Of a stretch of DNA of 64,000 nt, positions 5,423-39,883 are shown piece after piece. Source of the DNA: Candidatus Bathyarchaeota archaeon (GTDB taxonomy: Archaea > Thermoproteota > Bathyarchaeia > 40CM-2-53-6); the NCBI GenBank assembly GCA_963726255.1, contig CAVSBL010000002.1, positions 1,088,001-1,152,000 of the forward strand. The letters are read 5' to 3'. Position 1 is the first letter of the stretch. Every line of letters begins with the position of its first letter. Made by a program: the position numbers and the translations under genes. The notes beneath the pieces were generated by a model. The model saw only the letters and a list, made by a program, of their open reading frames with translations, was not told the DNA's origin and ran no database searches.

Positions 5423-5580
5423 CGGAGGGACTCATCACCCTCAGAGAGTGGCGGTTGGGTTACCGCTTTCTCTCTTCTTCGCATAATGTTACCGTGCAGG
5501 CATATTAGTGAATGTCGCGAATAAGTTTTGCTTCCAGAAACCTAACCTTGCGCATCCAGAAAGGAAAGTGGTGGGCCCGG
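5423..5580. repeat. ~150-bp direct repeat, copy 2, abutting the tRNA 3' end
   Basis: near-identical to 1887-2042. Confidence 0.9.
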
Positions 5581-5675
5581 AGGGATTCGAACCCTCGACC
5601 AGCAGGTTCCTCCGCTATGCATATGAGCTTCGACTTTCAGTGTCTGTCGCTCTAGCCTAGCTGAGCTACGGGCCC
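5569..5675 (-). tRNA. tRNA-Ile2(CAU) with two introns (30/31: 5629-5643; 37/38: 5608-5621)
   Basis: GGGCCCG/CGGGCCC-ACCA acceptor; removing two BHB-like introns gives a 78-nt cloverleaf with a CTCATAA loop. Confidence 0.85.
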
Positions 5676-7254: not shown

Positions 7255-7542
7255 ATGTCGAAACCGGACGAAATCGGCTTTAATCCACTTGAGGAACTTG
7301 ATCGTAGCGAAGCACGCATCGTCGTTAGATTGGAGTTTAGGCGATTCCGTAAACCGGTAACAATCATTCAAGGACTGCCTAGCACACGATTGGCGGAAAT
7401 TGCTCGCGAGCTGAAACGGAGGTTCGGGGCAGGGGGAACCACTAAAGGTGGAGAGGTCCTACTCCAAGGAGATCATCGCGGGCACATCAAACAAGAACTC
7501 GTGGAATTGGGATTCCCGGCTGACCATATCGACATGATCTAA
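7255..7542 (+). CDS. sui1: translation initiation factor SUI1/aIF1 family
   Basis: KPVTIIQGL, LKRRFGAGGT, LQGDHR. Confidence 0.9.
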   Translation: MSKPDEIGFNPLEELDRSEARIVVRLEFRRFRKPVTIIQGLPSTRLAEIARELKRRFGAGGTTKGGEVLLQGDHRGHIKQELVELGFPADHIDMI

Positions 7543-7560
7543 AGGAAAGGGATGAGAGCG

Positions 7561-7710
7561 TGGTGCTCCGGGCGGGATTTTCAGCGATTGAACCATCGCA
7601 TTCGAACCCGCGTCGCTGACTCTCTCCGCAAACTCGAGAGGCCAGCATACTCTCGGCGACATACGCCTTGACCGGGCTATACTCGGTAGCTGAACCGCTT
7701 CTACCGGAGC
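7561..7710 (-). tRNA. tRNA-Glu(CUC) with four introns (10/11: 7682-7700; 20b/21: 7652-7668; 37/38: 7622-7634; 59/60: 7578-7600)
   Basis: removing four BHB/BHL-flanked inserts gives a fully paired 78-nt cloverleaf GCTCCGG...CCGGAGC-ACCA. Confidence 0.88.
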
Positions 7711-7752
7711 CCCAACTAACCCGGAGCAATTGGACTAACGCTGTCCCACGGT

Positions 7753-7760
7753 ATTTTAAC
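7753..7760 (-). promoter_or_regulatory. TATA-like box for the tRNA-Glu precursor
   Basis: TTAAAATA about 25 nt upstream of the first GCTCCGG copy. Confidence 0.5.
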
Positions 7761-7807
7761 CGTGTGCACAGAAAAGAAAAACAGAGGAAAGAAGATGGAA
7801 GTGCCGC

Positions 7808-9433
7808 TTAGTATTCCGGCTCCCCACCTCTCGGTGGTGGAGTTGGAGGCGGCTTAGCTGCGGCTATTACATCATCAACCCTAAGAATCATTGACGCGGC
7901 TTCGGCCGCGGACCGTATTGCTTGCTCCTTCACTCGAACTGGTTCTACGACGCCCTGCTTCCTCATGTCTTTGACTCCGCCTTTGAAGACATCGACGCCT
8001 TGCGACACACCTCCTTTCTTGCCATGCGCCGAGCGGAGGGCAACCATTATGTCAATGGGGTCAAGCCCCGCGTTCTCGGCTAGGGTCTTCGGAATCATTT
8101 CCAATGTGTCTGCGAAAGCTTCTATCGCAAGTGCCTCACGCCCGCCAACCTTACTGGCATAATCACTCAACCTCTTGGAAAGTTCGGCTTCAATTGCGCC
8201 TCCGCCCGTGACGATTTTTGGTTCTTGCACCAAATCGATGGTTACGGAGAGTGCGTCTTTGAGCGCTCGTTCAGCCTCATCGACTAAGCGCTCTAAGCCT
8301 GCACGGATAAGGACGCTAACTGACCGTGGGTCCTTGCAGCCTTCAATGAAGACCATCTTGTCGTCTCCAATCTTTCTTTCTTCAACAAGGTCTGCTTTTC
8401 CCAGGTCGCTGGCTTTCAGGTCGTCCAGGTTTGTGATGATTCTTCCGCCCGTTGCTCTTCCTAACTTTTCCATGTCTGATTTCTTGATTCTTCGTACGCC
8501 CAGTATTCCTTCCTTTGCGAGGTAGTGCTGTGTAGTGTCGTCAATTCCTTTCTGGCAAAGGACTACGTTTGCGCCCGAAGTTTTGATCTTGTCCACCATT
8601 TCCTTCATCATGCGAGTTTCCTCGTCAAGGAAGGCCTTCATCTGGGTCGGGTCCTCGATGCGTATTTCAGCGGATATCTCGGTCTTTTCAATTTCAAGGG
8701 CTGCATCTATAAGCGCAATCTTAGCGTTCTTAACCTGCTTTGGCATTCCTGGGTGAACAACTTCCTTGTCGACGATAATCCCCCTGACCAGTTGGGTGTC
8801 GAGGAGGCTTTTGCCTTCCTTCTTTACGAGCTGCACGTTGTCGATGTCGGCGTACCATGCATCGCCGCGCTTTTCCTTAACCAGTTGAATTGCCTCAATG
8901 GCGATGTCGGCGAAGTGTTCACGGGCACCACCTAAACCCTTGCTATGCATCGCCGTCATGGCAACTTTCTTGAGAGCAACTTTGTCCTCAAGTTTAATCG
9001 GTTCAGATAGGGAATCGAGAATCTGAATCGCTCTGTCCGCCGCCTTCTTGTAACCCGCAACAATGATCGTTGGGTGAACGTCGTCATCGAGCAAGTCTTG
9101 GGCTCGTTTCAGTAGCCCGCCCGCAAGGATTACCGCCGTCGTAGTCCCGTCGCCAACTTCATCATCCTGTGTCTTGGCAACCTCAACCATCATTTTCGCG
9201 GCTGGATTCTGAACATCAACTTCGTCAAGGACCGTGGCCCCGTCATTTGTTACAGTCACATCGCCGAGGCTGTCAACGAGCATCTTGTCCATTCCGCGTG
9301 GGCCCAATGTCGTTTTCACAACTTCAGAAACAATGATCGCCGCTGTAATGTTGCTCCGTTGAGCGTCGCGGCCTCTATTGCGGGTGGATCCTTCCTTTAG
9401 AATGAGTACACGTTGACCAGAGAGCTCGGACAT
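7808..9433 (-). CDS. ths: thermosome subunit (group II chaperonin)
   Basis: [16 protein letters not shown] motifs. Confidence 0.97.
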
Positions 9434-39472: not shown

Positions 39473-39748
39473 ATGGCCGATTCGCTGACCACGACGATTA
39501 CAATCCTTGGGGCGCTCGTCGTACTAATTGGGCTAATCTTCTGGATCCGAAGAGTTCGACAAAAAGGAGACGGCGGGCCTTTCATCGAACTTGAGAAATT
39601 GGTCAAGTGCAGGTCCTGCGGTTCTCTGATACCGGAAGGTGTCCGCAAATGCGCTTTTTGTGGCGTCTGGCAACGCCAAGAGGATTCCGGAGAACAAATA
39701 AATGGCCCAAAGAGCAATGGCACGAACGCCGCCGAAATGGCACACTAG
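39473..39748 (+). CDS. membrane-anchored zinc-ribbon protein
   Basis: N-terminal TM; CRSCG...CAFCG; stop overlaps tRNA G1. Confidence 0.7.
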   Translation: MADSLTTTITILGALVVLIGLIFWIRRVRQKGDGGPFIELEKLVKCRSCGSLIPEGVRKCAFCGVWQRQEDSGEQINGPKSNGTNAAEMAH

Positions 39749-39883
39749 CCGCCGTATGCGCATTCGCGTAGACGACAGCTCAGTGGTGGAGCAGCGGACC
39801 CTTCTCAGTAAGGGGCTGAAGCTGTTAAGCGGGCAGACACAGCTACCCGTTGGTCGCAGGTTCGAGCCCTGCCGGCGGCGCCA
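39748..39883 (+). tRNA. tRNA-Asn(GUU) with three introns (8/9: 39756-39776; 30/31: 39798-39820; 37/38: 39828-39844)
   Basis: removing three BHB-flanked inserts gives a fully paired 75-nt cloverleaf GCCGCCG...CGGCGGC-GCCA. Confidence 0.9.

Follow-up and report, generated by a model that had tools for sequence, protein, structure and literature searches.

A four-intron tRNA-Glu(CUC) gene in a Bathyarchaeia genome, with a leader segment that may serve as a folding decoy

In the passages available, two reviews, of 2014 (PMC4033280) and 2021 (PMC8450103), give three as the maximum number of introns in an archaeal tRNA gene. For Asgard archaea, the accessible parts of a 2024 paper report 228 introns in three genomes (PMC11291895), and those of an October 2026 preprint give, for two Asgard classes, a figure of 2.2 intervening sequences per gene and a maximum of five (10.64898/2026.10.13.758758). 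Here we describe a tRNA-Glu(CUC) gene from Bathyarchaeia that is composed of five exons and four introns within 150 nucleotides (nt). It lies on the minus strand of a 64,000-nt stretch of DNA (hereafter the window) from a Candidatus Bathyarchaeota archaeon genome (assembly GCA_963726255.1, contig CAVSBL010000002.1, hereafter C2, positions 1,088,001 to 1,152,000). We estimate a probability of about 0.87, resting on sequence comparison, that this is a functional gene, apparently the only one for tRNA-Glu(CUC), whose four introns are excised by a two-subunit EndA endonuclease and whose exons are joined by RtcB. The original prediction for this locus, a tRNA-Glu(CUC) interrupted by four introns with bulge-helix-bulge sites, is supported: the joined exons form a cloverleaf, the inserts are exactly present or absent in relatives, compensatory changes fall in the intron hairpins and the splicing enzymes are encoded in the genome.

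Like the tRNA genes of Thermoproteales, among which Pyrobaculum calidifontis has 71 introns in 46 genes (PMC8450103), the locus combines short introns at canonical and non-canonical positions with bulge-helix-bulge motifs, some of them relaxed, and a two-subunit EndA of the TACK type. Unlike them, it belongs to a different class and has four introns, where the text available on Thermoproteales gives at most three per gene (PMC4033280, PMC8450103) and mentions no leader decoy. It resembles the Asgard genomes, as far as the preprint text available describes them, in that nearly all tRNA genes are interrupted, with about two or more inserts per gene and many in the D arm, in that standard finders miss genes, and in the presence of two EndA paralogues; the phylum is a different one. 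The nuclear tRNA genes of Cyanidioschyzon merolae, in the portion of the source available (PMC3728597), likewise carry multiple ectopic introns in the D arm, at 37/38 and in the T loop, with bulge-helix-bulge motifs, and their removal has been shown to be ordered. That organism is, however, a eukaryote with at most three introns per gene and with some genes permuted, whereas tRNA-Glu(CUC) is not permuted. In the split tRNAs of Nanoarchaeum equitans and in permuted tRNAs, as covered by the text available (PMC4090602), leader or trailer likewise pairs elsewhere in the precursor and lets the splicing motif form. There, leader and trailer form the motif itself and EndA removes them; here, the exons are colinear in one gene and the leader would do no more than keep the 3′ acceptor strand out of the way.

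Literature searches for four or five introns in archaeal tRNAs and, judged on titles and the opening lines of abstracts, for tRNA introns in Bathyarchaeia returned nothing beyond the Asgard preprint, although supplements, including Data 4 of PMC11291895, may list four-intron genes. The preprint includes 18 non-Asgard reference genomes, and neither ‘Bathyarchae’ nor ‘leader’ occurs in its accessible text. A second search, on leaders, acceptor stems and bulge-helix-bulge motifs, found no decoy in the accessible parts of PMC4090602, PMC3218864 and the 2026 preprint, older key papers lying outside its range. As far as these searches extend, the lineage (Bathyarchaeia) and the leader decoy that goes with introns adjoining the acceptor stem are new. 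The original prediction had taken three introns as the commonly cited archaeal maximum, which agrees with the passages available from both reviews and is overtaken by the preprint. Four introns exceed the review figure and not that of the newest preprint; nor are they the record in their own genome, in view of a tRNA-Trp candidate described below.

The gene and its surroundings are laid out as follows (window coordinates).

7561–7710, minus strand: whole tRNA-Glu(CUC) gene, with CCA encoded at 7563–7561
7701–7710, minus strand: exon 1, tRNA positions 1–10, invariant or almost so in 18 distinct orthologues
7682–7700, minus strand: intron 1, 19 nt, at 10/11, exactly absent in L017 and L019
7669–7681, minus strand: exon 2, positions 11–20b, 5′ strand of the D stem and D loop, conserved in orthologues
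7652–7668, minus strand: intron 2, 17 nt, in the D loop at about 20b/21 (our own numbering), exactly absent in L020
7635–7651, minus strand: exon 3, positions 21–37, with anticodon CTC, conserved in orthologues
7622–7634, minus strand: intron 3, 13 nt, at the canonical 37/38, exactly absent in L020
7601–7621, minus strand: exon 4, positions 38–59, conserved in orthologues
7578–7600, minus strand: intron 4, 23 nt, in the T loop at 59/60, exactly absent in L013, L015, L016 and L018
7561–7577, minus strand: exon 5, positions 60–76 with CCA, conserved in orthologues
7719–7728, minus strand: putative leader decoy, 10 nt at −18 to −9, complementary to tRNA positions 64–73 (leader alignment and folding)
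7752–7759, minus strand: TATA-like box TTAAAATA at −49 to −42, conserved in orthologues
7808–9433, minus strand: upstream gene, thermosome-like by reading of its open frame

From 5′ to 3′ the segments measure 10, 19, 13, 17, 17, 13, 21, 23 and 17 nt, which sum to 150 nt with 72 nt of insert; both the five-part division and the insert fraction that had been predicted were reproduced exactly. Concatenating the five exons by script from their coordinates gives 78 nt, which ARAGORN calls as tRNA-Glu(ctc) over positions 1 to 78. Removal of the inserts thus yields a standard cloverleaf, and all of its stems are paired, as had been claimed, with two G-U pairs in the D stem and one in the anticodon stem. 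The exons lie colinear within the 150 nt, which sets the gene apart from split and permuted tRNA genes. In its unspliced form the gene escapes standard tools: ARAGORN reports no genes in the 64-kilobase (kb) window, and Rfam gives no tRNA match to the unspliced gene at gathering thresholds or at E values of up to 10. A permissive Rfam scan of 7400–7900 gave a chance-level H/ACA match of 13 bits as its sole hit. An open frame of 80 amino acids (aa; 7487–7729, minus strand) spans the whole tRNA gene and is most likely not a gene.

Archaeal tRNA splice sites follow a rule of a 4-base-pair (bp) helix flanked by two 3-nt bulges, with the cut behind the second nucleotide of the bulge; the canonical 37/38 intron of tRNA-Glu(CUC) itself conforms to this rule. 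For each intron we tried every shift of the boundaries that leaves the product unchanged. The four predicted central helices (CGGT/ACCG, CGGT/GCCG, CTCT/GGAG and TTCG/TGAA) were recovered with their 3-nt bulges. For introns 1, 2 and 4, only the predicted boundaries give a central helix of 4/4 pairs with 3-nt bulges; for intron 3, shifts of 0 and +1 both yield 4/4. The central helix of intron 1 is formed by tRNA nt 5–8 and the intron, and that of intron 2 (4/4) uses the G18 G19 region; both have an inner hairpin of 3 bp and no contiguous outer helix (0–1 bp). Intron 3 forms its central helix with positions 32–35 and has the anticodon stem (5 bp or more) as outer helix and an inner helix of 0–1 bp. 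Intron 4 displays the full helix-bulge-helix-bulge-helix arrangement, with the 5-bp T stem as outer helix and an inner hairpin of 5 bp.

The strongest evidence that the inserts are introns comes from comparison of related genomes. A DNA search of 40 relatives and the genome itself retrieved 20 same-genus loci, representing 18 distinct orthologues; three more genomes of the genus were matched by a 3′ fragment only, and no orthologue was retrieved there. In 19 of these 20 loci a thermosome-like gene, the same each time, lies upstream of the tRNA gene and served as syntenic anchor; L010 gave no hit. Thirteen genomes, the window’s own among them, have the complete set of four introns (L001–L012 and L014). 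The 23-nt insert is exactly missing from L013, L015, L016 and L018, the 19-nt insert is missing from L017 and L019, the latter with its 3′ part masked by N, and the 17-nt and 13-nt inserts are both exactly missing from L020. Each of the four inserts thus has at least one congeneric orthologue from which it is cleanly missing. In the 18 distinct orthologues the exons change little or not at all, and the inserts differ in length and sequence. A 4/4 central helix is nevertheless kept in 17 of 17 loci for intron 1, 17 of 17 for intron 2, 16 of 17 for intron 3 and 11 of 14 for intron 4. In the proposed structure 97.7% of 734 alignment cells pair, against 35–45% when the partners are slid by 1–3 columns. 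Five pairs, located in the intron hairpins, show double (compensatory) changes, and none of 500 shuffles matched the observed values.

The splicing machinery is encoded in the genome (2.42 megabases (Mb), 98.5% complete). Two PF01974 proteins (EndA paralogues) of 188 aa and 187 aa are present, encoded at L139:1468-2034 (minus strand) and L140:1204-1767 (plus strand). The first is closest to PDB entries 3p1z_B, 3ajv_B and 2cv8_A (E values 8e-41 to 5e-37, with 8e-41 for 3p1z_B), which we take to be crenarchaeal enzymes; by our reading of its sequence, it has its catalytic Tyr, His and Lys in place. Its K41 stands opposite K44 of 3p1z_B, a loop lysine that we assume to be needed for relaxed motifs. 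As we read the alignment, the catalytic His is not conserved in the 187-aa paralogue. A catalytic and a non-catalytic paralogue, each about 180 aa long, point to an EndA of the (alpha-beta)2 type. Such a two-subunit enzyme is typical of the TACK group and accepts relaxed motifs, according to the text available of PMC7714728. RtcB (571 bits) and the RNase P RNA (174 bits) are also encoded. The sole other tRNA-Glu gene found is the UUC isoacceptor (C2:1298092-1298224, two predicted inserts), so in a genome of this completeness the four-intron gene is apparently the only CUC isoacceptor.

These data bear on three other explanations of the locus. That it is a decaying pseudogene, with accumulated insertions and no working tRNA, would fit its being missed by standard finders and the metatranscriptome contigs, which cover the 7770–8000 side and not the tRNA. 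It is very improbable, given that exons stay almost invariant in orthologues whose inserts diverge yet keep their helices, that the promoter box is conserved, that no other CUC isoacceptor was found in the genome and that most of the genome’s tRNA genes are similarly interrupted (35 of 36 candidate loci measure at least 93 nt). We give slightly less credit still to fewer or differently placed introns, such as three together with an unusual extra arm. A solver that allows a long variable arm does accept a three-intron solution with a 91-nt product, but with a normal variable loop of 4–5 nt the four-intron structure is the only strict solution, without stem mismatch. In addition, L020 exactly lacks the 13-nt and 17-nt inserts, L013, L015, L016 and L018 the 23-nt insert, and L017 the 19-nt insert. 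An assembly or binning artefact is scarcely credible: the assembly is of the metagenome type, with 9.3% estimated contamination, but the gene sits on the 2.36-Mb main contig and the same architecture recurs in independent assemblies of 13 species.

How the intron set came to vary was traced on an unrooted tree of the thermosome gene, in which 5 of 17 inner branches are well supported and the non-syntenic L010 sits on a very long branch. Only one well-supported trio was used, with four introns in L007, no intron 4 in L018 and no introns 2 and 3 in L020; the intron set thus changes among close relatives. Since the four-intron state is spread over most branches of the tree, losses are the simpler reading of the absences; because the tree is poorly resolved and unrooted, the pattern suggests losses and goes no further. 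Other lineages of Bathyarchaeia (L021–L138) have differing intron sets in tRNA-Glu, so turnover is wide; three inserts occur in L035 and L135, for instance, one of them within the anticodon loop region and another in the T loop. The original prediction had remarked that 10/11 was not known to it as a typical intron position. This does not hold within the lineage, where the position recurs in tRNA-Trp and in 31 of 116 tRNA-Glu loci.

Alignment of the 90 nt upstream of the gene in 20 orthologues revealed two conserved blocks, at −49 to −42 (the TATA-like box) and −18 to −9, in an otherwise variable region. The second block repeats the 5′ strand of the acceptor stem and is complementary to tRNA positions 64–73, that is, to the 3′ acceptor strand and the discriminator. 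The usual archaeal spacing between TATA box and start would put transcription initiation at about −19, so this block would form the very 5′ end of the precursor. Its possible relevance to intron 1 follows from the central helix of that intron, which uses tRNA nt 5–8, nucleotides of the acceptor stem in the mature tRNA.

The block accompanies introns at this position well beyond the genus. Among 116 distinct tRNA-Glu loci from Bathyarchaeia and neighbouring lineages, which as relatives are not independent, every one of the 31 that carry a 10/11 intron has in its leader a segment that pairs with 7 or more nt of the 3′ strand; of the 85 that lack the intron, 4 have one. In the 31 loci these segments lie at −12 to −23, and 27 contain an exact 7-mer copy; of the four intron-less loci with a segment, L017 is listed and L019 can be deduced as the second congener. 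In distant lineages the leader sequence around the segment is unrelated. For tRNA-Trp, the segment is found in 21 of 22 loci with a 10/11 intron versus 1 of 7 without, across several families of the order. Within the genome itself, an exact 7-mer copy lies at most 60 nt upstream of three loci among the 36 tRNA candidates. These are Glu-CUC, Trp and Asn, whose first introns are at 8/9–10/11; the 31 loci with a first intron further downstream have no such copy. Leu-CAG, with an intron at 8/9, has a 7-nt pairing leader segment. The base 5′ of the copy complements the discriminator of its own tRNA in 4 of 4 cases (Glu, Trp, Asn and Leu(CAG)). The tRNA-Asn(GUU) candidate lies in the window (39748–39883, plus strand; C2:1127748-1127883), with three predicted introns at 8/9, about 30/31 and 37/38; at −21 its leader has 8 nt that pair with the 3′ acceptor strand and the G discriminator, and the Rfam tRNA match at this locus is partial (23.6 bits).

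We computed partition-function folds of 17 orthologues without a leader, with the natural 22-nt leader and with shuffled leaders. Without a leader, the intron-1 helix has a mean pairing probability (P) of 0.02 and the competing acceptor pairs 0.96. With the natural leader, the values become 0.89 and 0.00; the helix reaches at least 0.87 in 15 of the 17 orthologues, with 0.39 in L015 and 0.25 in L016. Shuffled leaders give 0.36 for the helix and 0.46 for the acceptor pairs. RNAalifold, applied to 12 four-intron sequences with their leaders, predicts a 10-bp helix between leader and 3′ end in 12 of 12 and a consensus in which exon nt 5–10 pair with intron 1. It also keeps a 5-bp helix, in 11–12 of 12 sequences, between window positions 7709–7713 and 7665–7669, that is, between the last two G’s of the leader with tRNA nt 1–3 (leader −2 to +3) and D-loop nt 14–17a. 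In the model, this could be a displaced outer helix for the intron-1 motif. In local folding, the intron-1 element is the minimum free energy (MFE) structure, those of introns 4 and 2 lie within about 1 kcal/mol of the MFE, and that of intron 3 competes with a register-shifted helix. Because each motif is a self-contained hairpin of six exon nt plus intron, all four could form during RNA synthesis.

On these grounds we favour, by some way short of confidence, a role for the leader pairing as a functional decoy. In the proposed pathway, transcription from the gene’s own TATA-box promoter would give a precursor of about 170 nt, in which each intron with the six exon nt directly upstream would fold into a local bulge-helix-bulge element. 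The first ten leader nt would pair with the 3′ acceptor strand and free tRNA nt 5–8 for intron 1. An EndA of the (alpha-beta)2 type would cut both bulges of each element, RtcB would join the exons and RNase P would take off the leader. We infer both that splicing occurs and its order: if the decoy pairing takes place, intron-1 splicing precedes maturation of the 5′ end. In a more general form, introns abutting the acceptor stem (8/9 to 10/11) would be cuttable only with the 3′ acceptor strand occupied; the first 8–10 nt of the primary transcript would copy the 5′ acceptor strand and complement the discriminator, and this decoy would accompany the intron in evolution, in Bathyarchaeia as well as in neighbouring lineages. 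We give even odds to this wider proposal, namely that the decoy is a cis folding switch that makes 8/9–10/11 introns spliceable before RNase P acts and that co-travels with them in at least tRNA-Glu and tRNA-Trp, and that the genus represents a third independent hotspot of tRNA fragmentation.

Several observations weigh against the splicing pathway or the decoy. Three of the four motifs are relaxed, those of introns 1 and 2 for want of a contiguous outer helix and that of intron 3 because its inner helix measures 0–1 bp; the strict bulge-helix-bulge form, which requires at least 2 bp in both outer helices according to the text available of PMC7714728, is found only in intron 4. The leaderless 150 nt have as their MFE structure a rod of −65.9 kcal/mol, compared with −39.8 kcal/mol for a fold with all four motifs and −46.2 kcal/mol when the rest is free to fold. 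The RNA runs found were two soil metatranscriptomes, which hold a tenth of the sampled words; each contributed one contig, confined to 7770–8000 or 7789–8000 and without the tRNA, and these are uninformative on splicing. In the model, the decoy still outcompetes the acceptor stem after all introns have been removed (P(acceptor) = 0.0), and its displacement for RNase P is unexplained. In tRNA-Asn, Leu(CAG) and Leu(GAG), the acceptor pairs are lost from the prediction once the leader is added, but the intron helix does not form (P = 0.0, 0.0 and 0.12, respectively). The relatives compared for tRNA-Glu and tRNA-Trp, moreover, are not independent cases.

Other such observations would suit a leader copy with no folding role, either a relic of the origin of the gene or intron or a promoter-proximal DNA element. 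Within the genus the decoy helix is invariant bar two C-to-T changes, so the pairing is unproven there by covariation, nor is there covariation within families; the two congeners that lost intron 1 retain the copy; and one tRNA with an 8/9 intron, Leu(GAG), has no decoy. We nevertheless think a copy of this kind unlikely, though it deserves to be taken seriously. The copy is retained where the surrounding leader is unrelated and is missing from 81 of 85 intron-less tRNA-Glu loci, in each of four tRNAs it fits the acceptor strand and discriminator of that very tRNA, tRNA-Trp shows the same association in several families, and both C-to-T substitutions leave a G-U pair. A separate idea, that one more intron separates the leader copy from the true 5′ end and brings the total to five, was rejected: the sites of the only self-complementary 4-mer would cost the product its U8, and by reasoning the relatives would yield other products.

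With this gene, the range of lineages in which a tRNA gene has more than three introns comes to include Bathyarchaeia, which are widespread in soils and sediments. Extreme tRNA fragmentation would then be found in three lineages: Thermoproteales, two Asgard classes and the present genus. The leader decoy, if real, would provide a simple rule for the survival of introns beside the acceptor stem and predicts an order of processing. Because standard finders miss interrupted genes, tRNA counts used to grade such genomes would be too low. In this 98.5%-complete genome the Rfam tRNA model exceeds its threshold at only 17 places, and the window contains at least three tRNA genes against none found by ARAGORN.

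The remaining tRNA genes were surveyed with a search of our own that combines a bulge-helix-bulge rule, cloverleaf checks and ARAGORN; the resulting census is incomplete and uncurated. It started from 35 anchor rows, from which two were removed as spurious by eye (1898579-1898850 and 1950824-1951353) and to which three loci were added, giving 36. For tRNA-Glu(CUC) it returned the four-intron structure as the sole strict solution. It also gave false solutions, namely loci with 4–6 long ‘introns’, of which 144263-144598 passes ARAGORN and the others fail, and a mode permitting one motif-free insert made many wrong anticodon calls. We used the census only for well-checked genes and locus lengths. 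The 36 candidate loci have a mean length of 134 nt, and as a rough figure the genome has about two introns per gene.

The most heavily interrupted candidate is a tRNA-Trp(CCA) locus of 229 nt (C2:266772-267000, minus strand; L196) with five introns, whose spliced product of 77 nt is a perfect tRNA and is called as tRNA-Trp by ARAGORN. Its inserts of 28, 19, 61, 19 and 25 nt lie at 10/11, 28/29, 37/38, 45/46 and 59/60. The 10/11 insert is exactly absent in other families and the remaining four are kept across the order; the 61-nt insert at 37/38 is conserved across the families of the order and has a C-box-like motif. Rfam gave no match at this locus, and a permissive threshold produced a chance-level miRNA hit only. 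A tRNA-Pro(GGG) gene of 181 nt (C2:979121-979301, minus strand; L143) has four introns in 18 of 18 genus orthologues retrieved, and a tRNA-Lys gene of 190 nt has three or four.

A tRNA-Tyr(GUA) gene of 199 nt (C2:1445282-1445480, minus strand; L142) is interrupted four times, at about 31/32, 37/38, 53/54 and 59/60. Three congeners exactly lack the two T-arm introns, and five are without the first intron. In two congeners (L158/L170 of G004 and L160/L169 of G011) the 3′ part of this gene, query positions 91–199, is recopied about 1.1 kb downstream, which may reflect a duplication, an integrated element or a very long insert. The only Rfam tRNA match in the window (48 bits) is at 5569–5675 on the minus strand; at 107 nt with CCA this tRNA is also interrupted, and the solver gave no convincing solution for its introns. 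A tRNA-Asp(GUC) candidate (C2:1441996-1442099, minus strand) has a single 28-nt insert, which lies in the 3′ acceptor strand at precursor position 68.
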